This document shows, in pieces, positions 390 to 45,403 of a DNA stretch of 64,000 bases. Position numbers and translations under genes: made by a program. Below the pieces are notes generated by a model. That model made no database searches, was not told where the DNA came from, and saw only the letters and a list, made by a program, of their open reading frames with translations. Origin of the DNA: Patescibacteria group bacterium (GTDB lineage Bacteria; Patescibacteriota; Microgenomatia; UBA10105; UBA927); contig DATKGN010000002.1 of assembly GCA_035510735.1 (NCBI GenBank), positions 125,118 through 189,117 on the forward strand. Direction: 5' to 3'. How positions within the stretch are numbered: the stretch's first letter is position 1; every line of letters begins with the position of its first letter.

Positions 390-1046
390 ATGGTGGAGGT
401 AACACCGAAATCGCTTGAAGACACGCGTAAAGAAAAATTTACTCTCGCGCTAACGCATAGGTATATTTACTACCATTGGGAAAATAGTAAAGGATCGCTT
501 GGCATCCCAACCGAACTTACCGAGCAATTCGCCCTCGTTTGGGGGGACTACACGGGTAATCAAAGTCATAAAGCACGGGAAGCCCACTTCGAATTTTTAA
601 GCAACTACGGATCATTCAATCTCAATATGTGGGTCGTAGACAAGGAACGAAAACAAATCTTCGTGAATGCAGATTTGTATACTCTGGGACTCTCCGGCGA
701 GATCAGAGGAAAAGGAAAAGACGGACTACACGGCATCCATCGAACCCTCCAATCCCTTTCAAATGCCTCAGGATACACGATCTTCCATATAGCAACACCC
801 AATGAGGTATCAGCTCCATTATTTACGGCGGCTGAAGGATATCGGCCGTTTACGACCTCTGACAGAAAACTTTTGGGTAAAGACTTAGACAAATTCAGTA
901 AGTCCAGATGGAACCGGCTCATGCGAACGGCGACATCCTCGCCCTCAAAAATAAAACAGTATGATCCTTCACAAACCGATCTTCACCTACTCCCCCGCGA
1001 ACAACAGGAAATCGATACCATGCTCCCTCTGGTTTTTCTTAAATAG
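390..1046 (+). CDS. hypothetical protein (218 aa)
   Basis: Long ORF after an AT-rich 390 bp leader; no motif I can assign; convergent with the next ORF. Confidence 0.45.
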   Translation: MVEVTPKSLEDTRKEKFTLALTHRYIYYHWENSKGSLGIPTELTEQFALVWGDYTGNQSHKAREAHFEFLSNYGSFNLNMWVVDKERKQIFVNADLYTLGLSGEIRGKGKDGLHGIHRTLQSLSNASGYTIFHIATPNEVSAPLFTAAEGYRPFTTSDRKLLGKDLDKFSKSRWNRLMRTATSSPSKIKQYDPSQTDLHLLPREQQEIDTMLPLVFLK

Positions 1047-1051
1047 AGTAC

Positions 1052-1618
1052 TTATGAAAGTAATTCAGGCTGAACAGGAGCCTGTCCGTAACTATTTGAG
1101 GCAAATTTTTCGACCAATGGAGATGGTGCAGGAAATCTGTAGCCTATTCCCGATTCGTGGAGGTTAAGTTCAAAATACACTGCTCGCTCCATGAGGTCTC
1201 TTGCTTTCACTCCTCCGATTTGAATGGGTAACGTAGCGATCTCTTCACCCGACAAATGCTGAAGGCCGTCATACTTTCGAAGGAGGTCTCTCACGGTGTA
1301 CGGATCGTGAGCATCCAAAGGTACCCAGACACGCAACCAGTCTTCTTCCGGTGTTCTCGTTAAAAGTAACGTTTCACTATTCTTCTTTTGAAAACTGATG
1401 ATACCATCACTACTGAATATCTCGTGTACGGAAAGATTTTTTCTATCTAACTCATCCAGCTGTAAAACGGTGCGGATTTTTCCGGATTTGTCTTTATAAT
1501 AAATATCCAATCCCTCACGATCAAAAGTATTATTAGGAAGAGCTTCCAGTCGCTTTTCAACCTCACCTTGCCATACCCAACCAAGCACTCGGAGAAACCC
1601 TCCATCTTCATACTTCAT
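1052..1618 (-). CDS. hypothetical protein (188 aa)
   Basis: ORF without recognisable motifs; convergent with 390-1046. Confidence 0.45.
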   Translation of the reverse strand: MKYEDGGFLRVLGWVWQGEVEKRLEALPNNTFDREGLDIYYKDKSGKIRTVLQLDELDRKNLSVHEIFSSDGIISFQKKNSETLLLTRTPEEDWLRVWVPLDAHDPYTVRDLLRKYDGLQHLSGEEIATLPIQIGGVKARDLMERAVYFELNLHESGIGYRFPAPSPLVEKFASNSYGQAPVQPELLS

Positions 1619-1667
1619 AATGAGCGGAGTATAACAAAAACGTGTGATTTTGCAACGAGACCCTCCA

Positions 1668-3809
1668 CTACTGCCACGAGGTCACTTTGTATAAACGAAA
1701 ACCCTGCAATGAATCCTCAGCTATGAGCTGAGCGCCTTTTGACGCTTTTTCCCACAATATGTGGTAGACATAATAAAACCGGGTATCGTAGGCGTTAAAC
1801 TCACTCTGGTTTATAAAAAAACAAAACGGCAGTTTGGGTTTCAGGGTGTCAATCTGTTCCGTCGATACGATATACCCCCGAACATATGCATATTGCGTCG
1901 CGGGCGCCACACCCAAAGCCGCGAGTAAATCAAACTCGTACGCATCAACACTCAATAGCGGACAACCGGACGGCAAGTGTTTTACTAAAAACTGATATTC
2001 GGGCAGGTCTTTTGTATTCCAATGATTTATCGAAGATTGTATAAATGCCGAAGACTCTTTTCCGATAGACGCGGCCGCAACTCCATACGGAATCATCATA
2101 AGCGTGCCGCGAAGCGCGCCCAGAACAATGATAAATAAACACAAAAACGTTCCGACCACGAGTACATAATCTTTTTTGACCGATGAACGGTTTTTCCAGG
2201 CTAAATCAACAAGTAATCCGGCCACAATAATAAACGGCATACTCACGCCATAGAGCGTGTGCGGCATGCTCCTCCCCATGTAATACGGAAATGATGTCAA
2301 CTGAATGACGGCGATATAGACGCACGCAATACCCAGTACATCCCGTTTCTTGAGAACGGCATACATACCGGCGATAACGCCCACCAGACTCACGAATAGT
2401 GGGAATATATAGGCGATATCGCCTCCAATGGGGACAAGGTAAACACCGCCTCCGAAAAAGCGTGCAAAATACGTGTACATACCGATATCCGGCAACCGAC
2501 CGGATTTAAAAAGCGTATAGGCGGATACTGCAGCGAAACTGCAAAGCACTGTCCCTCCGATTGGCACGATTACCGATCGCACGAAAAATGCTGGCTGTTT
2601 TTTTGCTACCGCACGAAGCAGCAATAGTGCCAACGCAGCAACGAAAAGCCCCGCGCCGATCTCCACCGAAAAAAATAACCCAAGCGTACTTGCGATAAGG
2701 AACAACGTAAAATAGAGTTCTTTTTTTGACTGGATAAACAACATCAACAACCCGAGAGGGATTAAACAAGCGCCGAAACGAAGGGGTGTAAATGCCGGGT
2801 GGCCTACGAGCGCAATTTTATATCCCGGAAACCCCCAGTACCGTATGAGGATCGTATAAAAAAATACGGCAATGGTCGTACTGAGTGCGAGAAGCCGGCT
2901 CGCGAATAATTTATAAAGGATGACAGTCAAGAGTCCGAAATAGACCACAAGAAATATCATGGTCGCGACAAGGCTCATCTCATACGAAACCGGAAGCTTG
3001 GGAAAAGCGAGAATCCACAAAATCCAGGGGATGAGATACCCATAGCCATATTGACTGTACACATCGATAAACGGAATACCTCCGTGCGCTATGTGGTAGG
3101 CCGATCCGAAGGTGATAAACATATCCCATGCGTCTTCGTACAGAAGCATAAACCGGAGAAGCGCCAGGGATATGAGTGATAGTACAACGACCAGCGGCAC
3201 CCACCTGGGTATTCGACTCACCCACCTCACTACATTCCTGTGTTGCCGTGTCAACCCGTAAAGAATTATGCCGATTGCGCATACGGCGATAAGATAAAAG
3301 TATTGTGTGTATATCGCAGGATCTGCACCGATATCAAAAAAGATCCCACTGGGTAAAAGATATTTCAACAGGGTGCCGCCCATAATAATACCAATAAATG
3401 ATTGCGGTATATCGCGTTTTAAAACATACGATCGCACGGCCCAAATACCTACAACCAAAAATCCCAACGGCACGATATTGAAAACAACATGCGTCATATT
3501 GATTGACGGGTAACAAAGAGCATATAACGTACAGGCGACCGCGGATATACGGGCTAGCGAGATAAACTTTTTATGCTGACGGAATCGGATGAATAACACA
3601 GAGAGGAGCGCCGAGCTCAAAAAAAATAGACCCACAAATGCGATGTAAACAATGTTATCGATTTCATGAGTAAAAATATCCAGAGGATTGAGCAAATGAA
3701 TGGATCCGACCGGGATGCGCCAGAAAAACGGAAATAATGCCCGAATGACCCATGAGGCAATAACTCCCGAAAAAATAGCTGCATAATACATCCACTCAAC
3801 AGGAAACAT
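1668..3809 (-). CDS. large polytopic integral membrane protein (713 aa), GT-C-like architecture (possible glycosyl/lipid transferase)
   Basis: More than 12 predicted TM helices in the N-terminal ~560 aa followed by a ~150 aa soluble C-terminal domain; the function is inferred from architecture only. Confidence 0.55.
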   Translation of the reverse strand: MFPVEWMYYAAIFSGVIASWVIRALFPFFWRIPVGSIHLLNPLDIFTHEIDNIVYIAFVGLFFLSSALLSVLFIRFRQHKKFISLARISAVACTLYALCYPSINMTHVVFNIVPLGFLVVGIWAVRSYVLKRDIPQSFIGIIMGGTLLKYLLPSGIFFDIGADPAIYTQYFYLIAVCAIGIILYGLTRQHRNVVRWVSRIPRWVPLVVVLSLISLALLRFMLLYEDAWDMFITFGSAYHIAHGGIPFIDVYSQYGYGYLIPWILWILAFPKLPVSYEMSLVATMIFLVVYFGLLTVILYKLFASRLLALSTTIAVFFYTILIRYWGFPGYKIALVGHPAFTPLRFGACLIPLGLLMLFIQSKKELYFTLFLIASTLGLFFSVEIGAGLFVAALALLLLRAVAKKQPAFFVRSVIVPIGGTVLCSFAAVSAYTLFKSGRLPDIGMYTYFARFFGGGVYLVPIGGDIAYIFPLFVSLVGVIAGMYAVLKKRDVLGIACVYIAVIQLTSFPYYMGRSMPHTLYGVSMPFIIVAGLLVDLAWKNRSSVKKDYVLVVGTFLCLFIIVLGALRGTLMMIPYGVAAASIGKESSAFIQSSINHWNTKDLPEYQFLVKHLPSGCPLLSVDAYEFDLLAALGVAPATQYAYVRGYIVSTEQIDTLKPKLPFCFFINQSEFNAYDTRFYYVYHILWEKASKGAQLIAEDSLQGFRLYKVTSWQ

Positions 3810-5503: not shown

Positions 5504-7068
5504 AAAAACTATTTCAATCACCCATTCATATATTCCTTCTCCCTTTGTTCCCAATACTTTCCCTTATCGCACACAACTACAGTGAGTTATTCCCTTCTCA
5601 GATATTTTTTGCCATCGGCTATGTTCTTGTGCCGGTCATATTCCTGTGGATTCTTCTTGATCTTATATTCCTCAAGGACGTAAGGAAGTCAGCGATAGCC
5701 GTCTCCATCGCCTTCTTCATTTTTAAACCGTTTGCCTCAATCGATTTTTTGTCGGAAAATATAGAGCTCAGGCAGTTTATTGCGCTTCATAATGACACGG
5801 TATTCTGGATACTCGGTACTATTATTGTTTTGGCGATTATCATAAAATTCTTCAAACGGAAATTTAACAAAATAACCCTGGTGTTAAATATATTCAGTAT
5901 TTCATTTCTCATCCTGCCGGTCGGTTCCATTCTGTACAGCCAGTCAATCCGCACATTTTTTCCGATACGTCTCCTCCACCCGATACAATATACAAATGAG
6001 GGCAAAAACATAACGACGGCACCGGACATCTACTACATCATCTCCGACCGGTACGCCAATGCAGAGACACTCTCAGATTATTACGGCTACGATAACAGCG
6101 CATTTTACAATGCACTGGGCTCGCGGGGCTTTTACGTGGCGACGAACAGCGCGGCAAATTACCCCTTCACAGAGCCGTCATTGGCATCTTCACTCAATCT
6201 GAATTACTTCGATGTGACACATAGTAATAAACAATCAAGCGATGATACGCCAATACTTGATATTATCGAGAACAATGAAGCGGTGAAGTATCTCAAATCA
6301 CGCGGCTACACGTACTATCATTTCGGCGCCGAGTGGGTGACACCGGTTAATAAAAATGCTGACTTCCAGTACAGTTATAAAACCAAAACGCTCTCACAGG
6401 CCCAAATAGAGCTTATTTCGCTAAATGCCGATTCAAACGCTCTCGGTGAATATTTACATAATAATCGATACGCGACATCGACGTTTCTTTTGTCACAGCC
6501 CCAAAATCACGGCAGTTATATGCTCGACCAGCTCCTGGAACTTTCTAAAATCATCGCAAACCCGGGACCGAAGTTCGTATTCGTCCATTTACTATTAACC
6601 CATGATCCGTATGTGTTTACAAAAGACGGATATTATACAAACAGGACGGCCACCAACCTGAGAAGCGGAGCAAATCCCCTATATCTCGGGCAGCTGCAAT
6701 TTGCAAATAAGATCCTGCTTGCGACTATTGACACGATTTTAAAAAGTTCCAAAAAGCCACCGATTATCATCCTCCAATCCGATGAAGGACCGTACCCCAA
6801 AGCGTTTCGCGATAATTTAAACGGTTTCAGCTGGAAGAAGGCTACAATTGCCGAAATGCGCGAAAAAATTCGGATTCTTAATTCTTTTTATCTCCCAGGT
6901 CAGACATCGACTCCACTCTACGACAACATCTCACCGGTGAATAGTTTCCGAATGATCTTTAACCTATATCTCGGAGAACACTTGCCCCTGCTTCCGGATA
7001 AAAGTTATGCGCAAACCTATCTTCAGCGGAATTACGACTTCTTCGAAGTTACGAATATCGTAAAATAA
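5500..7068 (+). CDS. LtaS-like sulfatase / phosphoglycerol-transferase family membrane protein
   Basis: N-terminal ~5 TM helices then an extracytoplasmic alkaline-phosphatase-superfamily domain (IYYIISDRYANAE..., FVFVHLLLTHDPY, IIILQSDEGP); 4-nt overlap with the upstream MTase. Confidence 0.7.
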   Translation: MKKLFQSPIHIFLLPLFPILSLIAHNYSELFPSQIFFAIGYVLVPVIFLWILLDLIFLKDVRKSAIAVSIAFFIFKPFASIDFLSENIELRQFIALHNDTVFWILGTIIVLAIIIKFFKRKFNKITLVLNIFSISFLILPVGSILYSQSIRTFFPIRLLHPIQYTNEGKNITTAPDIYYIISDRYANAETLSDYYGYDNSAFYNALGSRGFYVATNSAANYPFTEPSLASSLNLNYFDVTHSNKQSSDDTPILDIIENNEAVKYLKSRGYTYYHFGAEWVTPVNKNADFQYSYKTKTLSQAQIELISLNADSNALGEYLHNNRYATSTFLLSQPQNHGSYMLDQLLELSKIIANPGPKFVFVHLLLTHDPYVFTKDGYYTNRTATNLRSGANPLYLGQLQFANKILLATIDTILKSSKKPPIIILQSDEGPYPKAFRDNLNGFSWKKATIAEMREKIRILNSFYLPGQTSTPLYDNISPVNSFRMIFNLYLGEHLPLLPDKSYAQTYLQRNYDFFEVTNIVK

Positions 7069-7074
7069 TCCCGA

Positions 7075-8547
7075 TTACATCCGTGATAACTGCGCAAATA
7101 CCCCTGGCTGTTTTGCCTTGATAATATCCCGTATTTTCGTAATGGTCTGAAGCATATGAATGACTTCACGGTCGCTGCTTTTTATACCCCAAGGCGCGAG
7201 TATGCGCTGGATATTCTCTGCTTCCTCGCCGATGGTGACTCTCAGGCGGTCAAGAAGATATTGCGGTCTGGTTTCGGGCTCGACGAGTAATCCTAACTCT
7301 TCCCAATAATTCTCCAACGGACCCTGGAGCGCGCTACGGAGAAGATACAGCTCATTTTTATTCTTCGTCAATCCAGTGCGTTCCATCTGCTTGGCCACGT
7401 CAGCACCCCAGACATAGGCAGCCATCAATACCAGCCGTTTTTCCTCGGCAGAAAGATGCCGATCACGAAGCACCTGAACCCCGAAGTCAGCACTCATGCG
7501 TTCTAGTGCCGCCCGTTTCTCATCAGGCGGCATCGGTAATACGGCAACACCGGTCAACGAATCAAAAATCCGTACGAGCTTTTCCTGCGTTGAGCGGATG
7601 ACACGATCGTTTTCACTTTCCAAAATTGTTGGATCGAAATTCCCTCGTTCCCGCGCCCGATAATGCGCGAAGGCGCTTTCGGTTATATAATTTTCTTCGG
7701 AGAGCATTTCACCCGGAAAAGTATTTCTGGTAAACCAATCTAATCTGCCCATAACATCAATCGAATATAACTGCCCTTCCGGACGCCATATCCAAAACTG
7801 AACCAAGTCGGACATCCCGGGAGAAGTATTTGTAAACATCTGAATCTCTAGAACGTGTTGCCGCGACAAATATTGAAGTATACGCATGGTATCCGTCTTA
7901 ATAGACACCCTATCGCCATGCTCGCCATCGCGCATATCAGGCAAATGCATGAGATGTTCCTGTTTTGAAAACCAAAACATCATAGGTATAACATCTCGAA
8001 ATAACCGTCGAGCAACGACCTCATTGTCACCCAAGGTCTTACCCAGTGCTTCATAGGCCCCCTGCACAATACGTTTAATCTGGGCATAGTGCTCTACAAA
8101 ATAGTTGGGATTATTACGGCTTTCGGAATACGCTTCTTCAACGCGCGTCCAGATTACCTCTTCCTGTGGGCGCACGAATTGATAGATTGCATCAATATCC
8201 GGATACGGCAACCGCTTAATAATGCCGTTGGCATAAAATCCCCCTCCGGCACCGCCCGCATCTCCTATTTTCTCAATAAACTCATGCACCTTTTGACTTC
8301 GACTTCCTTCACCGCCCAAAAGTAATTCGATCAGCTGATCGGTTTTATAACGGGCAACCTCTACATCCGTCGCCGCCAGTCTACCTAAGAGATCCATGTC
8401 TTCAAATCGATACTCCTCAACCAATCGGGCGACATTTCGCGTGGCGATAAGATAGTTTGTTATATCGGCAGATCCCAAATCTTCCCGGGGAAAGGAGAGA
8501 AGCATATTGAGTCCTTCTTTATCCCGTATCGGCGTATAGCCGAGCAT
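7075..8547 (-). CDS. hypothetical protein (490 aa)
   Basis: Long ORF; Gly-rich stretch GDAGGAGGGFYANG; a possible metal-binding HLMHLPDMRDGEHGDR segment; no confident family assignment. Confidence 0.55.
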   Translation of the reverse strand: MLGYTPIRDKEGLNMLLSFPREDLGSADITNYLIATRNVARLVEEYRFEDMDLLGRLAATDVEVARYKTDQLIELLLGGEGSRSQKVHEFIEKIGDAGGAGGGFYANGIIKRLPYPDIDAIYQFVRPQEEVIWTRVEEAYSESRNNPNYFVEHYAQIKRIVQGAYEALGKTLGDNEVVARRLFRDVIPMMFWFSKQEHLMHLPDMRDGEHGDRVSIKTDTMRILQYLSRQHVLEIQMFTNTSPGMSDLVQFWIWRPEGQLYSIDVMGRLDWFTRNTFPGEMLSEENYITESAFAHYRARERGNFDPTILESENDRVIRSTQEKLVRIFDSLTGVAVLPMPPDEKRAALERMSADFGVQVLRDRHLSAEEKRLVLMAAYVWGADVAKQMERTGLTKNKNELYLLRSALQGPLENYWEELGLLVEPETRPQYLLDRLRVTIGEEAENIQRILAPWGIKSSDREVIHMLQTITKIRDIIKAKQPGVFAQLSRM

Positions 8548-8562
8548 AAATAAAAAAACTTT

Positions 8563-9051
8563 TCAGTAGTTTGATGCGGTCATCGAAGGTTCTTTACGGT
8601 CGGTAAGCACATCCTTGAACCTTTGCGTAGCCATCGTAAGCGTTGCGAGTCTATTAGCTACCAAATAGGTGAACTTTCTCCGATCCAACTCCGCATTTTG
8701 AAATGATTTGTGGTCACGCTCTTTATTGGCAAACGCTCGTTGATACTCCTGCCAAAACTGATCGCTCACCAAGCCCTTGCCGCAGCCTGCAAGTCGTCCA
8801 GCCTGTGTTATCGTGTCGTTATTTATGCTTTCGTGTTTAATCCCTTGAGTCCTAACGACTGACACGAGTGTATCGTAAGCATCAAAAATATGAAGCCATG
8901 CACCATCATCCGAGGTCATTCCGAACGCCGCAAACTCAAGGGATTTTCGGGCTTTCGATGCGGGATCGACGAACGATTCCAAACGAGCGGCCAGCGCCGC
9001 CGTGATTTGCTCCCTGGATCGCGGTTTTTCCTGTTCTGCATCGTTTCCCAT
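8563..9051 (-). CDS. hypothetical protein (162 aa), co-operonic with 7075-8547
   Basis: 16-nt gap to the downstream gene on the same strand; no recognisable motif. Confidence 0.5.
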   Translation of the reverse strand: MGNDAEQEKPRSREQITAALAARLESFVDPASKARKSLEFAAFGMTSDDGAWLHIFDAYDTLVSVVRTQGIKHESINNDTITQAGRLAGCGKGLVSDQFWQEYQRAFANKERDHKSFQNAELDRRKFTYLVANRLATLTMATQRFKDVLTDRKEPSMTASNY

Positions 9052-9187
9052 AGCTATATATCCTTCCGACCTACATAATCCACCCTATAATTGTATCATG
9101 TACCGCCTCCAATCGAACAATATAATTCTTTTCAGCGTCCTTTCAGCGAACCCGATTAGATTATTCGGTGGAAAGAAGGTGAATACT

Positions 9188-9445
9188 ATGTATATGTACT
9201 ATGGCTCGCGCTTCGCAGGACCCGGTCCAGGTTTCGGACTTTTCTGGCCTATCGCATTTGTATTATTTATCATTCTTATAGTATGGATAATAAGTACTCA
9301 TATGGGCACAAATTCCCATAATGATGATGTTAACGATAGTGAATTACCGGAACAGGAGTCAGCTCTTGAGATTCTCAAAAAACGCTATGCACGGGGCGAA
9401 ATCACGAAGCGCCAATATCTTGAAATGAAAAAAGATATCAGCTGA
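9188..9445 (+). CDS. small membrane protein with a C-terminal SHOCT domain
   Basis: TM helix (FGLFWPIAFVLFIILIVWII) followed by ALEILKKRYARGEITKRQYLEMKKDI (SHOCT-like); start moved to the ATG at 9188, which is preceded by GGAAAGAAGGTG. Confidence 0.6.
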   Translation: MYMYYGSRFAGPGPGFGLFWPIAFVLFIILIVWIISTHMGTNSHNDDVNDSELPEQESALEILKKRYARGEITKRQYLEMKKDIS

Positions 9446-9502
9446 TAATTGATTGAACTTTGTGATCTTTTAGCGTAAAATAAGTAAATCTTTTGGTAAT
9501 CT

Positions 9503-10582
9503 ATGACACAAAGCTCAATTCGTATCGCTATTGTTGGTGTCGGAAACTGCGCCTCGTCGCTCGTTCAGGGATTAACCTACTATAAAAATGTAAAAGGCGA
9601 TGCTCCTGTTGTTGGTCTCATGCACAACAGTATAGGCGGCTACAGTATAAAAAACATTGAAGTTGTCGCTGCATTTGACGTCAATAAAACCAAAGTTGGA
9701 AAAGACGTCGCTGAAGCCATATTCGCCCATCCGAACAATACGAAAAAATTCTCGGACGTTGCTAAGACCGGCGTCATTGTGCAAAACGGGCAGGTATTAG
9801 ACGGCATCGGAGAGTTTGTGAAAGATGTTGTCATCCCAAGCGATGCTCAGATGCCTGATCCCGTTGAGATTTTGAAAAAATCAGGTGCACAGATTCTGGT
9901 CAGCTACCTCCCAGTCGGCAGCCAGAAAGCAACGGAATATTGGGCCAATGTATGTCTCAAGGCAAAAGTTGGTTTGATCAATTGCATACCTGTGTTTATC
10001 GCGTCCAATCCCGAGTGGGCGAAAAGGTTTACGGACGCGGGCGTGCCGATTATCGGCGATGACATTAAGTCCCAGGTAGGCGCAACGATTCTCCACCGGA
10101 CGCTCGTCAATCTCTTTCTTGACCGCGGGATGCCGATTGACCACACGTATCAACTCAACGTGGGCGGCAATACGGACTTCCAAAACATGCTTGAACACGC
10201 ACGTCTGACGAGTAAGAAATTATCGAAAACCCGTTCAGTCACGTCGCAGTTTAAATTGCGGGATAAAACGATTGCTGACGAAGATGTCCATATAGGCCCG
10301 AGCGACTATGTTCCGTGGCTTCACGATAATAAACTCGCGTTCATCAGAATTGAAAGCCGCCACTTCGGCGATATACCGATGAATGTGGAGGTCCGTCTCT
10401 CGGTTGAGGATTCGCCCAATTCCGCGGGCGTCGTTATCGATGCGATCCGCTGTTGTAAGGTCGCTCTTGACCGTAAAGTCGCGGGTCCGCTTGAAGGCCC
10501 AAGCGCATATTTTATGAAATCCCCTCCCCGCCAGATGAACGACCATGAAGCTAAAGCTTCAGTTGAAACGTTTATAAAATAA
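9503..10582 (+). CDS. ino1: myo-inositol-1-phosphate synthase (bacterial/archaeal type)
   Basis: IAIVGVGNCASSLVQG NAD-binding N-terminus, SYLPVGS, IGDDIKSQVGATI, LNVGGNTDF, SPNSAGVVIDAIR; near-collinear with my recollection of actinobacterial Ino1. Confidence 0.9.
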   Translation: MTQSSIRIAIVGVGNCASSLVQGLTYYKNVKGDAPVVGLMHNSIGGYSIKNIEVVAAFDVNKTKVGKDVAEAIFAHPNNTKKFSDVAKTGVIVQNGQVLDGIGEFVKDVVIPSDAQMPDPVEILKKSGAQILVSYLPVGSQKATEYWANVCLKAKVGLINCIPVFIASNPEWAKRFTDAGVPIIGDDIKSQVGATILHRTLVNLFLDRGMPIDHTYQLNVGGNTDFQNMLEHARLTSKKLSKTRSVTSQFKLRDKTIADEDVHIGPSDYVPWLHDNKLAFIRIESRHFGDIPMNVEVRLSVEDSPNSAGVVIDAIRCCKVALDRKVAGPLEGPSAYFMKSPPRQMNDHEAKASVETFIK

Positions 10583-10628: not shown

Positions 10629-11459
10629 TTAAGGATATACTTCTCCAACAGTAGCTAACTGGAATTGCTGCGGTGCCGTCGTCACAGAAATAGCGTCAAG
10701 CGCTTGTGCGAAAAGCTGCGTGCCCTCATCGAGTTTATTGTGCAAACCCGATCGTACGTTATCATGCATCTGTAATGCGTCGATTTTATTACTGCAACTA
10801 CGAAACTCCGGTAAGAGTTCGAGATTTACAAAGTTGCGCCAAAAATCTTGTTCGTTCCGAATACCATTTAAGGGATGAACCGGCGAATAACGCCCGCTTT
10901 TAATGAGTTGACGAAGTACTTCTAAATATTCATAAATATGATACTCACTTCCTCCGAGGCCGTGACGGGATAACCTGATGTTAATAACCGGAATCGATAG
11001 CTGCTCCTGATAGGGTGAAAAATGGTAGCCATTTTTGTTTTTTTTAGACATCTGAAGTGTAACATCAAATAACAAAAACGGTTTGTAGCCGGAGTCCGTC
11101 TCATGTGCGATTAATATATCCGCGCCTCTGGATTTCTTGTTTTTATCAAGAGACTCCGGAGTCAACACAGCCCGCAGCGGAACACCATGATCCGATGGTA
11201 TAGATTGGACAAGACACTGCAATACATCACGCGTCCAAACTTCTGCAAGTTGTGAACGGGCATATCGTTCAGAATCCGGATGAAGTCCATCGCGGCCAAG
11301 GACCCACGCCTTTAAAATCATTGATGTTGATAAAACTTTTCTAAGATCATAAAAATCCGGAGAATACAAATACCCTCCAAGCACTAATGGCGACATCCGT
11401 TCTCGGTAGTAATTTGCGCTTAAATCTGAGGCCGTTATTAGGCCTGGTAATTCATTCAT
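10629..11459 (-). CDS. hypothetical protein (276 aa)
   Basis: ORF convergent with ino1; no motif assigned. Confidence 0.45.
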   Translation of the reverse strand: MNELPGLITASDLSANYYRERMSPLVLGGYLYSPDFYDLRKVLSTSMILKAWVLGRDGLHPDSERYARSQLAEVWTRDVLQCLVQSIPSDHGVPLRAVLTPESLDKNKKSRGADILIAHETDSGYKPFLLFDVTLQMSKKNKNGYHFSPYQEQLSIPVINIRLSRHGLGGSEYHIYEYLEVLRQLIKSGRYSPVHPLNGIRNEQDFWRNFVNLELLPEFRSCSNKIDALQMHDNVRSGLHNKLDEGTQLFAQALDAISVTTAPQQFQLATVGEVYP

Positions 11460-25200: not shown

Positions 25201-26064
25201 AGGTGCATTGTATCAAAGCCAAAGACTCCGGCAAGTTATATTTACTATAAGATTGATTATTACCTTATAGTAAGGTATACTTACTTTATGTTTTACGCAG
25301 AAAGAGTCGACAAACACAGCCCGCGTTATGCCATTGAATCATTTTATGATAGTGCGAAGTTGTATCTGCCTTCCGGTCTGACACCATATAAAGAAAAATA
25401 TGATTCAAATAATCAAATAGCGTTTAATTCCCCCAATGGCGATTTGGTAACCGTATATTTGGAAAAAACCCAGGGGTTAGACCAAAGACATGGCACATAT
25501 GCATATGTAGTGGCGAGAAGGAACAAACAGGATAGTGGGTTTGTTTGGATGGCATTAAAATTTCATCAACGACAACATGAACCGTTTTTCCAATCTATTC
25601 TGAACCAAGACCATTATAATAAACAATTAGGATATACCGTCTTTTCCCTTAATCGGAACAGTCATAAGGGAGAGGTAAATATGGGTATAGATTTCAACAG
25701 AAGTCCTAATCGTAATCCAAGTCTTACAAAACCTGCTCACGCAAAGCTCTATATATTTGATCTCTGGAAATATCATCGGGCAAAGTTGATAGTTACCGCA
25801 GATTCCCGTGATGAAAACTACTCCGAGTTGTTATTTGGACCTGATTCAGGCGGCTTATATGATGAAAATGGCGGTGATCTTCAGTTACCGGACACAATTC
25901 CCCAGCTCACACGGTTTCGCATATCAACTGATATGCCGCTCATAAAGGCAGCGTTTAATGAGCACATCGGCAACAAAGGAGAACCAATAAATCCATTTGT
26001 CTCTTTTCCCCAGGCGTACACAAAGATTGAGCGGTACGCGCTTAACTCTCTGAAGGCGGAATAG
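25192..26064 (+). CDS. hypothetical protein
   Basis: ORF; the real start is possibly at MFYAERVD; its 3' end overlaps the convergent ORF by 23 nt. Confidence 0.4.
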   Translation: MCHRCIVSKPKTPASYIYYKIDYYLIVRYTYFMFYAERVDKHSPRYAIESFYDSAKLYLPSGLTPYKEKYDSNNQIAFNSPNGDLVTVYLEKTQGLDQRHGTYAYVVARRNKQDSGFVWMALKFHQRQHEPFFQSILNQDHYNKQLGYTVFSLNRNSHKGEVNMGIDFNRSPNRNPSLTKPAHAKLYIFDLWKYHRAKLIVTADSRDENYSELLFGPDSGGLYDENGGDLQLPDTIPQLTRFRISTDMPLIKAAFNEHIGNKGEPINPFVSFPQAYTKIERYALNSLKAE

Positions 26065-26692
26065 CCTCTTCTTCCTTATCTTTCCTATCGTAATTAATGA
26101 AGGGAGGGTTGTAGTCAGGCATCACGGTTCTCATATTTTTAGTAAATGCGATTAAGCTGTTTTGTGACGGGCAGATGCGTTTGAGGTCGTCTGCTTTAAG
26201 CACCGCGAGCTCCGGAACCGTGTGCAGTTTCTCATCAATCATCCGATTATAGAGATAACGCCCGGGTTTAATAGTTTCCAGAGCTCTGTCGCCAAAATAC
26301 CATCTGCGCCACACGCGGACCAAAACCCAATATAACTCCTGCCGGAAGTCGCCGATCTTCGGGTCTCCGCTCGTCTGGGCTTTGATCTCTGACTCCGTCA
26401 GAAACCGTTTGTACTTCCCCTCTCCCTGCCGGTCGATAGACAAGGTTAAGATTAATACATCATGCGGGGAAAGCACCTGATCAACGGTAAATTGACCGCT
26501 CGCCTGAATTTCCGTAATGTTGTAGCGGAGCTGGTCCCGAAACGGGTGGGTAAACCGCCTATCCTTCAGTTCGTTCTTCTGTAATACGTCGTGGTCAACA
26601 TGTTCCGGCATCCACGATTTCCTGACAACCTCACGGACCTCAACGCCTGCAAACTCAGGTAACATCTGTGGATTCCCCTCCGGCAAAGTCAT
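26042..26692 (-). CDS. hypothetical protein (216 aa)
   Basis: ORF, no motif. Confidence 0.45.
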   Translation of the reverse strand: MTLPEGNPQMLPEFAGVEVREVVRKSWMPEHVDHDVLQKNELKDRRFTHPFRDQLRYNITEIQASGQFTVDQVLSPHDVLILTLSIDRQGEGKYKRFLTESEIKAQTSGDPKIGDFRQELYWVLVRVWRRWYFGDRALETIKPGRYLYNRMIDEKLHTVPELAVLKADDLKRICPSQNSLIAFTKNMRTVMPDYNPPFINYDRKDKEEEAIPPSES

Positions 26693-28160: not shown

Positions 28161-28715
28161 ATGAATCCTATTGTTCCGCCTATTGCCAAATTCTTAACCG
28201 CAGGCACGATTCTTGCCGATATCGCAATCGTCGCCTACGTTATCGGGTGGCTTGTGGGATTGGCTATCAAGCCCATTACTGCGCTCCGCAATAAGGCAAT
28301 TGAGATGATCGCGCCATACGCCCGCATCCTCGGATTTCTTCTCGCTCTCTCAGCTATGGCAGGTAGCCTGTTTTACTCGGAGATCGCCAAGTATCCGCCG
28401 TGCTTCCTCTGCTGGTGGCAGCGGATTTTCATGTATCCGCAGGTGCTTCTTATCGCCATGGGGATAATGAAGGATGACAAGAAAGTTGCTGATTACACGA
28501 TCGCCATGTCTATTATCGGTTTTGTCATTTCCGTCTACCAATATTACATCCAGATGGGCGGAGGCCAGCTTTTCCAATGCGATCTCAATGGCGGCGTCTC
28601 CTGCACCCAGCATTTCCCCTTGGAATTCGGCTACGTGACGCTGCCCATGATGGGCCTGACGGCTTTTGCGGGGCTCATTATCCTTATGTGGATTTCAAAA
28701 AAGCACGCGAAGTAA
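28161..28715 (+). CDS. disulfide bond formation protein B (DsbB/BdbC family)
   Basis: 4 TM helices, CFLCWWQRIFMYP first Cys pair and a second Cys pair CDLNGGVSC in the second periplasmic loop. Confidence 0.7.
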   Translation: MNPIVPPIAKFLTAGTILADIAIVAYVIGWLVGLAIKPITALRNKAIEMIAPYARILGFLLALSAMAGSLFYSEIAKYPPCFLCWWQRIFMYPQVLLIAMGIMKDDKKVADYTIAMSIIGFVISVYQYYIQMGGGQLFQCDLNGGVSCTQHFPLEFGYVTLPMMGLTAFAGLIILMWISKKHAK

Positions 28716-34453: not shown

Positions 34454-35356
34454 TTAAATCTTCAACTTTTCAACGCCGATGCCGGCCGCAATAATAAGTA
34501 GTCCGCCAAAAATCTGGATAAGCGTGAGTGACTCCCCGAGAAACGAAAACGCCAATACCGACACGATAACCGGCGTCAATGAAAAAATCATGGTAACAAA
34601 TGACGCGGACGACTCCTTAAGCGCCCGGTAACGGAACGTCGTAATAAGAATTTGACATATCGTTAGGGCAATGATGAGCGGGATCCCTGACGGGATGACC
34701 AAGGCATGTTGCCACCACGTGACGATGAGAAGCGGAATGAATCCCAACAGCGTGCTTACCGACGCTGCAACATCACTGTGAACAATTTTCGCAGCTATTC
34801 GGCCCAACACATTATTTCCCAAACTGATAAGCAATGCCTCAGTAATGGTGAGTATGTCGCCGGTTGATAGAGACAGTACACGTCCTTTTGTGGTAAGAAA
34901 ATACGACCCGACAAGTATAACGACTGCAAGAATAATTTTCTTTTTCGTTAACGGTTCCTTAAGGAAAATATATGCTTCAAGAATGGTAAAAAGTATAACC
35001 GTCCGAATGAGAAATGAATAATTTACGGCAGGACTGTATGTCAACGCATAAACTTCCGTAATAGTGACGCCGACAGAACTCACAAGAGCAATACCCAACA
35101 AAACTCCCCACGCTTTTGCATTCAACGATCTAATATCCCGTCTAAATTGAAACGCCTTTATCATCCAATACGGCAACTCAAATATTGAAGCCCAAATAGC
35201 GACGGTCAGCGTGAGATTTGACGTTTGGTGTAAAAGAATCCGTTCGAGAATAATCGCGATTGCCCAAACGATTGCTGCAATTGTGGCGTACCGGAATCCT
35301 GAGCTCATATACTTATAATGTAACCGCCTTCGGTAATGAGTAATTAAATTGTTCAA
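34454..35356 (-). CDS. EamA/DMT-family transporter
   Basis: 10 TM helices in two 5-TM halves. Confidence 0.65.
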   Translation of the reverse strand: MNNLITHYRRRLHYKYMSSGFRYATIAAIVWAIAIILERILLHQTSNLTLTVAIWASIFELPYWMIKAFQFRRDIRSLNAKAWGVLLGIALVSSVGVTITEVYALTYSPAVNYSFLIRTVILFTILEAYIFLKEPLTKKKIILAVVILVGSYFLTTKGRVLSLSTGDILTITEALLISLGNNVLGRIAAKIVHSDVAASVSTLLGFIPLLIVTWWQHALVIPSGIPLIIALTICQILITTFRYRALKESSASFVTMIFSLTPVIVSVLAFSFLGESLTLIQIFGGLLIIAAGIGVEKLKI

Positions 35357-37136
35357 TACTCTTCCATTGGTCCGTTGTTATGTGTGGTATTTTATTGTTT
35401 TTTATATACAGACAGGACGGCGCATTATCGTGATCGAGCCGAACGTAAAGATACGCTAATTGAGGCGGCATCGTGGTAAATTCGTTCGATTTCCCCCAGC
35501 ACCGGCCGTAAAAAAAGACCGGAGGATCCTTTTTGAGCATTTCATCGCGCGCTTTTGTATACACCGTAAAATACGGCATGAGCGATGTATACCAGCTGTA
35601 CGGGTAATCGGAATACCTGCCAGCCTGCCAGTAAATAAGATCATCCTGACCGTCAAGGAATAGGGTGTCAGCGGGATTGGATAATAACCGTACCGTTTCT
35701 CCGACGACATAATATTGATTGTAATTTGTCGTGAACTCCGTTTGCCGGTCAACCTGTTCATGAAGATAGGATGCGGGCGACACAAGCGCATATACCGATA
35801 ATCCCAAAAATACCGCCCCGCCGATAAGAGAAATCCATCGTACATTTCTGTACTGCCATACTTTTACCAACAGGCTCAGAACGGTGAATATGACCAGCGC
35901 ATACCACTCTATATGATGAAACGTGCCGTAATAGAGACTTCCGGGGATAATCGTCCTAATGTTTGCGAGTGTTAACACAGCAAGCGCAATAATGACGCCT
36001 GATATATTTTTCGATTTCACCAATACCAAAATTCCAAATAAAATAAGTAATGCCATGAGGCCTGCTTCCACCTCACGAAATAGATTCCAATTCCCTTCAT
36101 AAAATACCTGCAGTGGATATAAAAAAACACTCCACGTTCCCCCGCTTTGAGCAGCAACCTGCGTGGCTTCGATAGTGATGTTATGTTCATTAACCGTAAA
36201 CACGTTAAACATAAAATCGTTTATGCCAAAGTACGTAACAGAAGCGAGTGACATAAGAAAAAGAAGTATTCCCGACCACCAAATCCAGACAGTTTTTCTC
36301 ATAAACCAGAGCATTACGGCAAATAGCATAAGAACGAGCGGAATATACGGTTCGCGGGTAAATACGACAAACCATGTAAATATGGTTGCGAGAAATACTT
36401 CGAAGGGTGACACGCGCTTCTTTTGCAAAAATTCCCACACAAGACCCCACAAATACACGACCGGGTAGACGATGATGGGCTCGGCCAAAAACCGGTCGCC
36501 GAAAATAAACCCTTTTGTCGATTCAAAGAGAATGGCAAATCCGAATCCGACAACGCCAAACCGTAGTGTGAGGAAGATGTCAGCAATAATGGACAGATAA
36601 ATCATAAACATCCGGTGCTGGTAAATAAGCATGTAGATGGAATCCGGTTTCGTCAGGTGCTGGATAAGGGCGCTTATGTAGGCCATCGACGGCATGTGGT
36701 TAAAGAAAATTTCAGAGAACATCTTTTTGCCGTGAAGGAGGAAATACCCGCCCATCATGTTATTGCAGTCGTCGAAACACCCGAATGCACCGATCCGGTC
36801 GCGGTAAATTGAACGAAGATATATCCATAACGGGATGAGGAGAAAAACGAAAAGCAATCTTAGGGAGAAGCGCTTTGGTCGCTGCGCCTTTTGTGCGCAT
36901 CCGTCAGTGCTTGAGTCGCGGGTGACGCGGGACGGAGGGCCTCCACCGGCCGGGGTCCCCTTCGTGGGTGGCCGTGGAGGAAAACCCGCGGCAGGACCCG
37001 CACTCTGATCTTGCGCAGTGACGGTGCTGACAAAACGTGCAGCTCCCCGCGCTTCTCTGTTCTTTTGATTATTCTGAATATTAATCCTGTCTAACGTTGC
37101 GGTTTTCCGTCGCGGTTTGTTTGGCTTTTTTGCCAT
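35313..37136 (-). CDS. large polytopic membrane protein with a basic low-complexity N-terminal tail
   Basis: More than 10 TM helices plus a C-terminal soluble domain; start chosen at MAKKPNKPRRK; the ORF-track extension overlaps the upstream gene. Confidence 0.5.
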   Translation of the reverse strand: MAKKPNKPRRKTATLDRINIQNNQKNREARGAARFVSTVTAQDQSAGPAAGFPPRPPTKGTPAGGGPPSRVTRDSSTDGCAQKAQRPKRFSLRLLFVFLLIPLWIYLRSIYRDRIGAFGCFDDCNNMMGGYFLLHGKKMFSEIFFNHMPSMAYISALIQHLTKPDSIYMLIYQHRMFMIYLSIIADIFLTLRFGVVGFGFAILFESTKGFIFGDRFLAEPIIVYPVVYLWGLVWEFLQKKRVSPFEVFLATIFTWFVVFTREPYIPLVLMLFAVMLWFMRKTVWIWWSGILLFLMSLASVTYFGINDFMFNVFTVNEHNITIEATQVAAQSGGTWSVFLYPLQVFYEGNWNLFREVEAGLMALLILFGILVLVKSKNISGVIIALAVLTLANIRTIIPGSLYYGTFHHIEWYALVIFTVLSLLVKVWQYRNVRWISLIGGAVFLGLSVYALVSPASYLHEQVDRQTEFTTNYNQYYVVGETVRLLSNPADTLFLDGQDDLIYWQAGRYSDYPYSWYTSLMPYFTVYTKARDEMLKKDPPVFFYGRCWGKSNEFTTMPPQLAYLYVRLDHDNAPSCLYIKNNKIPHITTDQWKSIEQFNYSLPKAVTL

Positions 37137-37587
37137 ACAGATCTCCTCGCGGGCGCTTACTTGTGGCCATCGGCAGCGATTGAGCCGACTGCTGCGCCTG
37201 ATTTTGGGCAAGCACGTTTTTTTTCTGTTCCTGCTCCTGCTGTAGTCGTTCCCAGATGGACGGCTCTTTCTTCTTTGCGATGGCGCCGCTTGTGAGCTCC
37301 TCAAGAGCCCGACGCGCCATATGGCGCTTCACTGCCTGGTCATTTTCCCCGTCAATCTGCTCCCAGGCTGTAGCCGGCTTTCCACCCTCTCCGGGAGTCC
37401 CTGACGTCACGACCGTTTGTCCTTTGGAATTTTTCGAACTTGAAGTTCCGAGGCTTTCGAGCGCCTTCCCTGCAATATCTTTGGGAACTTTTGCAACCTC
37501 CGTGCCGATCTGTTTGCCGATCTGACCGAGCTCAGAGATTATTGATCCGCCGATATTGCCGCTGTCTGCCATAATTCCTCTTGTCAC
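37081..37587 (-). CDS. hypothetical low-complexity (G/Q/K-rich) protein
   Basis: ORF; coiled/low-complexity composition. Confidence 0.4.
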   Translation of the reverse strand: MTRGIMADSGNIGGSIISELGQIGKQIGTEVAKVPKDIAGKALESLGTSSSKNSKGQTVVTSGTPGEGGKPATAWEQIDGENDQAVKRHMARRALEELTSGAIAKKKEPSIWERLQQEQEQKKNVLAQNQAQQSAQSLPMATSKRPRGDLYGKKAKQTATENRNVRQD

Positions 37588-43804: not shown

Positions 43805-44356
43805 CTACACAAGAGGCAGGTACATAACTATTTGGCCAATATAGCTTCCTTTAAATAATATCGCTTCCGGTATAACACCCGTCTTCTTAAACCCGAGTGA
43901 CTCGTAGAGATGCAATCCGCAAACATTATTTTCAAAACAATGAAGCATAAGTAATCGTAATCCTAATTTTTTTGACTCGTCTATTAGAGTTTGAAATAAC
44001 ACTTTTCCTATACCCTCGCCTCTGTATTCTCCGGCAATAGAAATCCCCGGAATTCCGACGTGATGACTTCGGTATTTTTCTCTCGCAATACCTGCCATGC
44101 CGCAAACAGTTTTGTTAATTTCAACAATAATGGAAATCTCTTCATCCTTTTCTATATTCTTCAACCTATCATTTAAAAACGTCATTTCTTCGCGCCTAGT
44201 AATTGGTTTGCCGCTTATAAGGACGTACGTGTCTTCTGCGATAAGGTTATTGGCATAGGCAAGGATTTGATCAATGTCATCATGCATAGGAGTGCGCATA
44301 GTAATGACATTTCCCTTTTTACTTGTAAAAGTCTTAATGATTTCACCGGGTTTCAT
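43805..44356 (-). CDS. GNAT family N-acetyltransferase
   Basis: 183 aa, acetyl-CoA-binding RGEGIGKVLFQ. Confidence 0.7.
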   Translation of the reverse strand: MKPGEIIKTFTSKKGNVITMRTPMHDDIDQILAYANNLIAEDTYVLISGKPITRREEMTFLNDRLKNIEKDEEISIIVEINKTVCGMAGIAREKYRSHHVGIPGISIAGEYRGEGIGKVLFQTLIDESKKLGLRLLMLHCFENNVCGLHLYESLGFKKTGVIPEAILFKGSYIGQIVMYLPLV

Positions 44357-44455: not shown

Positions 44456-45403
44456 ATGCCGGAAGAAAATATACAATCACAAAAACTTGTTGCAGAGCAT
44501 GAAATAGCCGGTAAAAAACTGGACGAGCTAAAAAGAAATGGAGTTGCCCTTCTCGGTGCAGATTTCGACGGTACTGTATTTGATAGAACTGACCCACGGT
44601 ATAATCTTCAACAAGTTATCCAATTAGCTTATGATGTAACCAGTAAAAAAGCGGACTTTGCCTTAATTTCTGCCCGAAATACAACATTAGAACTCACGTT
44701 AAGACAGGAGGTAGTACAGTTTTGCAGAAAAAGAAATACCTCATTCTCCCTATGGAGATCAGGAGGAAATGGAATGAATTTAAGTAAGGTCACAAGTAGT
44801 CCTGAAGGAGTAAAAGTAGAACCCATCTACTCTCATTATTTGACTCTGGAGGATGCACAAAAGTCCCTGGAAGCTTACAGATCCTTGCATATCGACCCTG
44901 ATGTCCCATCACAAAAATTCTTTCAAACCTTTCTACAACAGGATATACCGGAAGACCTCGTACCAAAAAACTTTCTGGCATTAGCAAAACCATATGATGG
45001 TTTAGTTTTCGGGGAAGCCGTTAAAATCTCCTTTGTGTTACCTACCGCAATTAAGGACCAGGAAACATGCATCGAGTCTCTTAGAAAATCCCTTGAGCCG
45101 CATGGTTTAGTTGTTGGTTGGGCGAGAATGCCGTTTGCTGACATTAGCAAACAATCCGTCGTAGACGGGAAGTTATTCGCAATTCAACGTGTAATGGAAC
45201 AATTAGGAGTAGATGGTTCACACGTTGGTACATTTGGTGACGCCCCTAACGATAGTGATAAAGGATTAGTATGTCTTCCATACGGATTTACAAATCATCA
45301 AGAAGTTGAAAAAACCGATATCAATAGCCCGCCTTTTATACTTGACGTTAAAGATTCACCCGTCGGGACGGTTCATCAGGCTATACAGTTTCTGATACAA
45401 TGA
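44456..45403 (+). CDS. HAD-IIB-like phosphatase
   Basis: GADFDGTV motif I and GDAPNDSD motif IV. Confidence 0.5.
   Translation: MPEENIQSQKLVAEHEIAGKKLDELKRNGVALLGADFDGTVFDRTDPRYNLQQVIQLAYDVTSKKADFALISARNTTLELTLRQEVVQFCRKRNTSFSLWRSGGNGMNLSKVTSSPEGVKVEPIYSHYLTLEDAQKSLEAYRSLHIDPDVPSQKFFQTFLQQDIPEDLVPKNFLALAKPYDGLVFGEAVKISFVLPTAIKDQETCIESLRKSLEPHGLVVGWARMPFADISKQSVVDGKLFAIQRVMEQLGVDGSHVGTFGDAPNDSDKGLVCLPYGFTNHQEVEKTDINSPPFILDVKDSPVGTVHQAIQFLIQ

Follow-up and report, generated by a model that had tools for sequence, protein, structure and literature searches.

The locus at positions 7075–9445 raises the question of whether two adjacent open reading frames (ORFs) that resemble nothing familiar are a pair of genes with a joint task or have some other origin. 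It lies in a 64,000-nucleotide stretch of contig DATKGN010000002.1, which is referred to here as the window. The original prediction described the two ORFs as a two-gene operon. Both are present on the minus strand: the upstream ORF (8563–9051; 162 codons plus TGA) encodes 162 aa, and the downstream ORF (7075–8547) encodes 490 aa when read from the ATG at 8547, or 476 aa when read from the ATG at 8505. Each is annotated by NCBI as a hypothetical protein (VMR81_00735/HUD18956.1 for the 162-aa ORF and VMR81_00730/HUD18955.1 for the 490-aa ORF). The distance between them, first given as 16 nt, is 15 nt. Rather than being two independent frames, the ORFs occupy one and the same reading frame, separated by a single TGA codon at 8563–8565 (minus strand).

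A comparison with a sister lineage explains this arrangement. There, the corresponding 1977 nt make up a single, unbroken ORF of 658 aa (P0002), which is found on two contigs and is about 82% identical to the window at the nucleotide level. The split and fused versions are collinear over all 658 codons without gaps, and the TGA falls at codon 163, where it aligns with an ATG (Met163) of the sister lineage. The N-terminal fragment is 73–74% identical in amino acid sequence to residues 1–162 of P0002, and the C-terminal fragment is 84% identical to residues 169–658. The operon description therefore does not hold, as the shared frame contains one in-frame TGA and the only other lineage with the gene makes a single 658-aa protein. 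Synteny of the pair elsewhere also fails, since the only other genome has a single gene in its place. By this alignment, the two ORFs are shown to be two halves of one protein-coding gene of 658 codons, called gene X here. The source metagenome-assembled genome is labelled "Patescibacteria group bacterium" by NCBI and the sister contig "Gammaproteobacteria", so that the two taxonomic labels conflict.

The difference between the two versions is confined to the junction. Between the stop codon and the next ATG lies an A/T-rich spacer of 15 nt (AAAGTTTTTTTATTT; 8548–8562, minus strand), which contains a homopolymer of seven T residues at 8552–8558 where the sister lineage has six. Relative to the sister lineage, the window has lost the A of ATG163 and gained one T in the run 13 nt away, and these two indels are the only ones in the 1977 nt of gene X. 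The 1-nt deletion (ATG to -TG A) and the 1-nt expansion of T6 downstream thus leave both parts of the gene in the same frame. The five codons of the spacer specify a conserved peptide (KVFLF in the split version versus KSFLF in the sister), and 28 nt of junction DNA are free of substitutions. The interruption appears to be real and not an assembly or sequencing error. The same TGA junction occurs in four further contigs (L002, L003, L004 and L006) from ENA and Logan assemblies of four other datasets, the split allele being identical in the first three and 99.94% identical in L006; because the datasets may share reads, the five assemblies are only partly independent. In L006, the C-terminal part is possibly cut at about codon 97 and joined to an arsC-like gene, an arrangement that was seen in one sample and may be a chimera.

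Both parts of gene X bear the marks of a protein-coding sequence. Between the two lineages, substitutions in the C-terminal part number 50, 37 and 154 at codon positions 1, 2 and 3, and pairwise omega is 0.195 for the N-terminal part and 0.12–0.13 for the C-terminal part, with a value of 0.03 over the final 108 codons; these pairwise values are averages over both lineages and cannot be assigned to the split branch without an outgroup. Neighbouring genes have omega values of 0.03–0.15. The preference for the third codon position, together with an omega of 0.13–0.20, indicates that the ORFs are more than chance. The GC content of gene X (0.479, with GC3 of 0.486) matches the rest of the genome. 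Gene X has thus been shown to be native chromosomal DNA that evolved under purifying selection. Synonymous divergence is low at codons 282–316; a hidden antisense gene was considered as a source of this and was rejected, as the plus-strand ORF at 8089–8325 has a stop codon in the sister lineage.

The statement that neither ORF belongs to a nameable family has been borne out. Neither the two ORFs nor the fused ortholog nor any of four fragments matched a family in Pfam, NCBIfam, PADLOC or PHROGs; two weak matches (phrog_1003, E = 0.049; AvrPtoB-E3, E = 0.26) were dismissed as noise. Word-indexed searches with the C-terminal part, the N-terminal part and a two-sequence profile retrieved the same two lineages only, as did an exhaustive phmmer search of 1.84 billion representatives and searches of GTDB genomes and JGI metagenomes. 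Viral, phage and plasmid collections, including IMG/VR, yielded no relative, and phmmer and hmmsearch against the PDB gave no sequence match. Overall, among about 15 billion proteins, gene X is known from two closely related uncultured lineages only; a stand-alone homolog of the N-terminal or the C-terminal part was absent from the collections searched, and no paralogs or internal repeats of the gene were found, the C-terminal fragment being without a paralog.

The 658-codon product would be a soluble protein of about 75 kDa, predicted to be cytoplasmic and mainly alpha-helical. Its C-terminal fragment has a pI of 5.5, has no transmembrane segment and carries a conserved core that includes GDAGGAGGGFY.NG and HLMHLPDMRDGE. 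The Gly-rich and His/Asp-rich motifs previously pointed out in the large ORF (GDAGGAGGGFYANG and HLMHLPDMRDGEHGDR) are both there. Of the His/Asp-rich segment, the distal half is not conserved: the window has EHGDR where the sister lineage has ENEGR. Motif scans of gene X for Walker A, HExxH, HxxEH and GxGxxG were negative. AlphaFold2 (AF2) modelling of the full-length fused protein from a 3-row alignment predicted helices with a pLDDT of 40 and a pTM of 0.25; the C-terminal 181 aa, which are the most constrained part, were modelled as a helical bundle (pLDDT 57, pTM 0.51). The fold search was limited to the latter model because matches to a full-length model with a pLDDT of 40 would be meaningless, and Foldseek found nothing in the PDB at E ≤ 0.001 for these 181 aa, only generic or designed helical bundles. 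The AF2 models are too poor for fold assignment.

One specific function can be put forward, namely that gene X encodes a divergent Pol-beta-type nucleotidyltransferase with its site (GG-x13-DIDA, fused residues 270–288) set in a helical scaffold. The loose signature G[GS]x9-13Dh[DE]h has a single match, inside the most conserved block of the protein, and is found in 3% of composition-preserving shuffles, a rate that is not significant after correction because seven motifs were tried. The strict signature (hG[GS]x9-13Dh[DE]h) is not matched, as the hydrophobic residue before G[GS] is absent. No Pfam nucleotidyltransferase family reached even E ≤ 10 with the whole protein or its fragments, the PDB sequences gave no match, and around the putative site the AF2 model is unusable (pLDDT 21–46), which reflects the 3 rows of the alignment. 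An assignment to this enzyme class is very unlikely to be right.

The divergently transcribed neighbour (9188–9445, plus strand) encodes a protein of 85 aa with one transmembrane helix and a C-terminal SHOCT domain, as had been predicted; the match to PF09851 lies above the gathering score (E = 4.7e-8; 33 bits against a cut-off of 27) and covers residues 121–146 of the listed 147-aa ORF (9002–9445), which are the last residues of the 85-aa gene. Its start is placed at ATG 9188, which is preceded by an AGGTGA Shine–Dalgarno (SD) sequence, and gene calls give 84–85 aa. With this start, the divergent intergenic region of 136 bp also holds. The neighbour resembles other SHOCT-domain membrane proteins in its small size and its typical architecture of a transmembrane helix followed by a C-terminal SHOCT domain (PMC3581485; PMC11237479). 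SHOCT has no established function: a role in oligomerization found no support when tested, and anchoring close to the membrane has been suggested (PMC3581485; PMC11237479). In the sister lineage, the protein is 73% identical and its SHOCT part is invariant, and its adjacency to gene X is uninformative on a functional link since it is seen only in two near relatives. Downstream, ino1 is adjacent as claimed (PF01658, E = 1e-33). On the left, the supposed envelope-biogenesis cluster was not borne out, its genes giving sub-threshold methyltransferase matches or no match at all; for the 522-aa neighbour, an identity as a sulfatase or LtaS-type enzyme was considered and found no support in Pfam and PDB searches. 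The right flank is made up of housekeeping genes (dihydrofolate reductase, ThyA, F1 ATPase and aminoacyl-tRNA synthetases), and 5-FTHF cyclo-ligase and Dus are also among the neighbours. The four neighbouring genes shared with the sister lineage are all intact. No tRNA gene was found in the window, and a Pfam scan of 27 window ORFs, a minority of those present, showed no integrase or transposase family.

How the split gene might be expressed can be read from its start signals. The TATAAT-like box reported in the intergenic region exists at 9086–9091 on the plus strand but is not conserved between the lineages; the box that is conserved lies on the strand of gene X. This extended -10-like box (TGATACAAT; 9090–9098, minus strand) lies about 38 nt upstream of the start codon of gene X, in a block that is identical between both lineages within an otherwise divergent intergenic region. 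It is likely the promoter of the whole locus, an assignment that rests on a consensus match only, the box being absent from the list of a simple promoter scan. For the C-terminal fragment, two starts can be considered. The ATG at 8547 follows the A/T-rich spacer and has no SD sequence, although just 10 of 36 genes in the window have one. The ATG at 8505–8503 (Met15 of the 490-aa ORF; element at 8503–8516, minus strand) is preceded by AAGGA at 8516–8512 with a spacing of 6 nt and is the start chosen by gene callers on three contigs, giving the 476-aa P0001. The Met codons of both starts are kept in the fused sister protein.

From these elements, the best explanation, which is favoured by a modest degree, is that the locus is one split gene X whose C-terminal fragment is re-initiated downstream of the stop and whose two chains act together. 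Transcription would begin at the conserved TGATACAAT box, and ribosomes would make the 162-aa N-terminal fragment and terminate at the UGA. By termination–reinitiation, they would restart on the same mRNA at the AUG 15 nt downstream, across an unstructured A/U-rich spacer; alternatively, the restart would use the AUG that follows an SD sequence and lies 57 nt beyond the stop. Either way, the product would be a C-terminal fragment of 476–490 aa, and the C-terminal part is probably re-initiated in this manner. The N- and C-terminal chains would then work jointly, like the single-chain protein of the sister lineage. In the most economical history, the deletion of the A would first have made the stop, and the T run would have slipped later, within the only 15 nt of the locus that were by then unconstrained.

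Two other explanations keep the ORFs as separate genes. A two-component defence, toxin–antitoxin or stress module, as the original prediction suggested, would fit a small upstream and a large downstream ORF that are both unannotated and lie beside a small membrane protein. In the sister lineage, however, the candidate module is one gene, and a search of PADLOC-DB v2 returned nothing at E ≤ 1 for the 490-aa ORF, the 162-aa ORF, the SHOCT protein or a 276-aa orphan. PHROGs was likewise empty, and the gene has no phage, plasmid or viral relative. An association with a defence island is contradicted by the housekeeping neighbours, above all on the right flank, by the lack of a tRNA gene in the window and by a native composition with nothing foreign about it. 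Its restriction to two near-identical lineages also sets gene X apart from defence genes that move horizontally. A role in defence or stress is highly improbable. Less remote, yet still rather unlikely, is an ancestral two-gene operon, encoding two interacting partners, that the sister lineage turned into a Rosetta-stone fusion. With only two lineages, the polarity of fused versus split fits either direction; the window arrangement (a stop, 15 nt and then an ATG) resembles a coupled pair, and the existence of a fused form in one genome would point to joint action of both parts. Against this, the ORFs are already in frame, so that one substitution of the TGA would fuse them, whereas the actual difference consists of two indels. 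The KVFLF versus KSFLF spacer peptide and the 28 nt without substitution also disfavour an ancestral operon, since both would follow more readily from a spacer that had been coding until a short time ago.

The remaining explanations accept a single gene and differ on what the TGA means. If it were a recent inactivating lesion, gene X would be a fresh pseudogene, with the locus decaying and neither fragment useful. This is a possibility of some substance, even if it is not the one preferred. The ortholog is intact where this gene is interrupted, a second indel lies beside the first, and both halves would still look intact if the nonsense mutation were recent. As a tiny, lineage-restricted family, gene X is plausibly dispensable; the truncated C-terminal part joined to an arsC-like gene in L006, if it reflects a real population, would argue the same. 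Conversely, there are zero further stops or frameshifts within the 652 codons of the split gene and the indels are confined to the 15-nt junction, the split allele is the sole one seen for the window lineage in five assemblies, and the intact state of the four shared neighbours gives no sign of general genome decay. All of these points remain compatible with a very recent event. Translational recoding would instead allow the 658-aa protein to be made, the UGA being read through or decoded as selenocysteine, or as Gly under code 25. In some Patescibacteria lineages (Gracilibacteria/Absconditabacteria), UGA is indeed reassigned to Gly under this code. Recoding would explain why two indels restored the frame: they compensate exactly and keep the N- and C-terminal parts in frame, an outcome with a chance of one in three. 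Yet TGA is an ordinary stop in the window, since 14 of 53 long ORFs end on it, and when read with table 11 the housekeeping genes come out at normal length. At the position of the TGA, the sister lineage has ATG (Met) and no codon for Cys, Sec or Gly. An Rfam scan of 6900–9600, SECIS included, gave no match, and the RNA flanking the stop shows no unusual degree of structure (z = -1.7; 11 of 200 shuffles fold as well), with a small downstream hairpin that is not conserved in the sister lineage (L005). Recoding is thus very unlikely. The best reading of the locus is a lineage-restricted orphan gene that was recently split, or freshly pseudogenized, at a homopolymer.

For annotation, VMR81_00730 and VMR81_00735 are to be treated as fragments of one gene, neither an operon nor a candidate defence pair. 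Should the split form turn out to work, gene X would mark a natural boundary between domains of an orphan protein and serve as a small, clean case of a gene that underwent fission at a homopolymer and uses translational reinitiation. Should it be a pseudogene, the lesson is limited to the dispensability of this clade-specific gene. In neither case does the result touch a long-standing question. A bolder proposal is that gene X founds a truly new family of proteins, perhaps one with a fold of its own, that is limited to one small clade of uncultured, Patescibacteria-labelled bacteria. Its conserved Gly-rich/acidic core would be a candidate for a divergent site of nucleotide binding or nucleotidyl transfer, and the compensated pair of indels would have produced a functional two-chain form here by termination–reinitiation. 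Taken as a whole, this proposal is speculative and rather unlikely. If true, the two-chain form would amount to a "split-protein" experiment of nature that marks a domain boundary at residue 162/163.

Genomes of the Candidate Phyla Radiation (CPR)/Patescibacteria are rich in families of unknown function. Like the lineage-restricted hypothetical families of the CPR, gene X is without a domain, homolog or structure match; unlike the usual ones, it is extremely narrow in distribution, being limited to two lineages. Programmed recoding is exemplified by the +1 frameshift of prfB at CUU UGA, the -1 slippage of dnaX on A AAA AAG and the decoding of UGA as selenocysteine. Gene X shares with such sites an in-frame UGA, located 4 nt upstream of a seven-U run in an otherwise continuous frame. 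Unlike them, its slippery run comes after the stop and is accompanied by no stimulatory structure, Rfam element or conserved hairpin, and nothing indicates that the junction is programmed. A further parallel is with the interrupted or split coding sequences of bacteria, in which one ORF in a relative corresponds to two adjacent same-strand ORFs. As in other genes split at homopolymers, the lesion of gene X involves a classic slippage site (T6 to T7), and as in other split genes, an ATG lies close behind the stop and could support coupling or reinitiation. Gene X differs from typical split genes in that its stop arises from a shifted reading of ATGA and in that its two halves are kept in frame by compensating indels 13 nt apart.

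The two ORFs that the original prediction read as a two-gene operon, 8563-9051(-) (162 aa) and 7075-8547(-) (490 aa), lie where it placed them, but they are the two parts of one gene (gene X), split in the window lineage by a stop codon from a compensated pair of indels at a homopolymer. Both ORFs share one frame; one TGA (8565-8563) and five codons lie between them, and these five codons make a spacer of 15 nt rather than the 16 nt first counted. Translation of 7075-9051(-) yields one 659-codon frame with 1 internal stop (…MTASNY*KVFLFMLGYTPIRD…), whereas the sister lineage encodes a single protein, P0002, of 658 aa (162 + 1 + 5 + 490) that runs uninterrupted through the junction (…MTASNYMKSFLFMLGYIPIRD…). 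The junction reads TAC TGA AAA GTT TTT TTA TTT ATG in the window and TAC ATG AAA AGT TTT TTA TTT ATG in the sister lineage, for which the simplest alignment would have the A of ATG lost and one T gained in the T-run (T6 to T7, 8552-8558). No other indel separates the two lineages in the 1977 nt of gene X, and the 28 nt around the junction hold zero substitutions besides these 2 indels, against differences at 18% of positions in the gene overall. The split allele recurs on contigs from other datasets and assemblers (L002, L003 and L004, 100% identical; L006, 99.94%), and because all four carry the same sequence, it is no one-off error. In this genome TGA works as a regular stop: 14 of the 53 long ORFs end with it, and translation table 11 gives housekeeping genes of the usual size.

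In a search of 5.8 billion clustered proteins, the 490-aa ORF matched only itself (P0001, 476 aa, started at Met15) and P0002 (84% identity). No further relative emerged from an exhaustive phmmer search of this ORF against 1.84 billion representatives, from a search with the 162-aa part or from a two-sequence profile at E <= 10, and PDB sequences, JGI metagenomes, IMG/VR, phages and plasmids gave zero matches. Pfam, NCBIfam, PADLOC and PHROGs assign no family to either ORF, the fused protein or fragments, in line with the earlier failure to name one. Since nothing was found beyond P0001 and P0002, the family is an orphan limited to two lineages. In the NCBI annotation the two window ORFs are hypothetical proteins, VMR81_00735 and VMR81_00730, from a MAG named ‘Patescibacteria group bacterium’, and the fused copy sits on a 13-kb contig (L005) from a MAG that carries the label ‘uncultured Gammaproteobacteria bacterium’. 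Nucleotide identity between the two contigs is 79%, and gene order is identical, over 6.8 kb; thus, one of the taxonomic labels is presumably wrong. The window also encodes ThyA, DHFR, SHMT, SAH hydrolase, ino1, F1 ATPase, bactofilin and an archaeal-type ProRS.

Gene X is a real gene. Between window and sister lineage, omega (nonsynonymous/synonymous ratio, Nei–Gojobori) is 0.195 for the N part, 0.124-0.126 for the C part and 0.03 for the last 108 codons, compared with 0.033 for ino1, 0.054 for the neighbouring 522-aa membrane protein and 0.145 for a methyltransferase-like protein. The C part has 50/37/154 substitutions at codon positions 1/2/3, GC and GC3 resemble the rest of the window, and the gene has no paralog or internal repeat. 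Its synonymous divergence is very uneven, with low blocks at 8104-8208 and 7570-7700 (fused codons 282-316 and 451-495); codons 281-316 carry 5 substitutions against about 18 expected. The dS of gene X (0.69-0.94) is well under that of its neighbours (1.29-1.37), and its last 108 codons reach 1.56. Patchy recombination or nucleotide-level constraint is a possible cause. An antisense ORF over the first block, 8089-8325(+), fails to explain the pattern, having a stop in the sister lineage.

The product would be a soluble, cytoplasmic and, by prediction, mostly helical protein. None of its segments reaches the hydrophobicity of a TM helix, and AlphaFold2 models are mainly helical but too unreliable to use (pLDDT 40 over the whole protein and 57 over the C-terminal 181 aa); Foldseek with the 181-aa model found no PDB match at E <= 0.001. 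A few blocks are very conserved: fused residues 250-320 and 452-495 and a predicted C-terminal bundle. The motifs quoted in the original prediction are present, including the His/Asp-rich segment, whose distal part is not conserved (EHGDR vs ENEGR). GG-x13-DIDA at residues 270-288 fits the loose Pol-beta nucleotidyltransferase signature, a weak lead: the loose signature, one of seven motifs tried, turns up in 3% of shuffles, the strict one is unmet, and nucleotidyltransferase profiles gave zero matches.

The locus lies in unremarkable chromosomal DNA and not in a defence island. The SHOCT and ino1 neighbours named before are real. Divergent from gene X is an 85-aa TM-plus-SHOCT protein (9188-9445; AGGTGA Shine-Dalgarno motif; 73% identical in the sister lineage), SHOCT being a domain without established function (PMC3581485; PMC11237479). 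Past it lie ino1, a 276-aa orphan, DHFR, ThyA, 5-FTHF cyclo-ligase, Dus and F1 ATP synthase, and farther on CysRS, ProRS, DnaX, RseP and SHMT; the left flank holds the 522-aa membrane protein, the weakly methyltransferase-like protein and then orphans. The order from ino1 through SHOCT, gene X and the 522-aa protein to the methyltransferase-like protein is kept in the sister lineage, but this order carries no functional information, because it is common to two close relatives only; synteny breaks directly left of the methyltransferase-like gene. PADLOC has zero matches at the locus, the window has no tRNA gene, and a Pfam scan of 27 of its ORFs, a minority of the total, turned up no integrase or transposase family. 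The proposal of a stress or defence two-component module is unsupported and failed every test applied.

Gene X and the 522-aa protein gene are convergent, with 6 nt (7069-7074) and no terminator-like hairpin between their stop codons. The 276-aa orphan, 10629-11459(-), sits between ino1 and DHFR, has no Pfam, NCBIfam, PADLOC or PHROGs match and has a GC3 of 0.39, clearly below the 0.48-0.62 of other genes; L005 stops just past ino1, short of this position. Large ORFs without a Pfam family also occur at window 390-3809 and 35313-37304 (218, 188, 713 and 663 aa) and at L005 7006-11484 (527, 252, 329 and 287 aa). L006 tracks the window, TGA split included, for 1622 nt at 99.94% identity and departs inside gene X at a GD|AGGAGGG motif (window 8260) into 322 nt (1623-1944) that the window lacks. 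Read on its reverse strand, this tail codes for the last 89 aa of an ArsC/low-molecular-weight phosphatase (PDB 8p5n_A, E = 3e-17; B. subtilis ArsC 1jl3, 9e-13). The junction reflects either chimeric assembly or a genuine rearrangement that truncates gene X in one population.

The gene X strand of the 136-bp intergenic region carries an extended -10-like box, TGATACAAT, inside a block conserved between lineages. The TATAAT noted earlier is there, on the + strand, but is not conserved in the sister lineage. Nor, unlike the TGATACAAT block, is a promoter-like site at 9146-9119 (gene X strand), because of a 56-nt sister insertion (L005:1600-1660, between window 9119 and 9120). SD-like motifs precede 10 of the window's 36 genes, and many instead show a hexamer resembling TATAAT or TATACT 6-12 nt 5' of the ATG, for instance 1052-1618(-), 1668-3809(-), 26042-26692(-), 28161-28715(+), 43805-44356(-), 44456-45403(+) and 50886-51716(-). 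This pattern suggests that leaderless mRNAs are widespread in this organism.

That one lineage has them fused means that the two parts form a single functional unit, whichever state is ancestral. The reading we favour, by a little over even chances, is that the split gene is a functional two-chain version. Its transcript would begin at the conserved -10 box, and UGA would end translation of the 162-aa N fragment. For the C fragment, translation could resume at the AUG lying 15 nt past the stop, where the RNA is A/U-rich and shows no significant fold, or at AUG 8505, which AAGGA precedes at 6-nt spacing; both Met codons already exist in the fused sister protein. In the most economical order, the A deletion would have created the stop and the T-run would have slipped later, within 15 nt that were by then the sole unconstrained stretch of the locus. 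A very recent pseudogene in the window lineage is a less likely account of the same stop. Low-level UGA readthrough would account for the restored frame but gains no positive support from the stop-codon census, an Rfam scan or RNA fold, and is improbable. The result is of modest value for annotation, and there is a small chance that gene X, in its two-chain form, is a neat natural split-protein case. As a lineage-restricted orphan gene with an in-frame stop, it is a known kind of thing.
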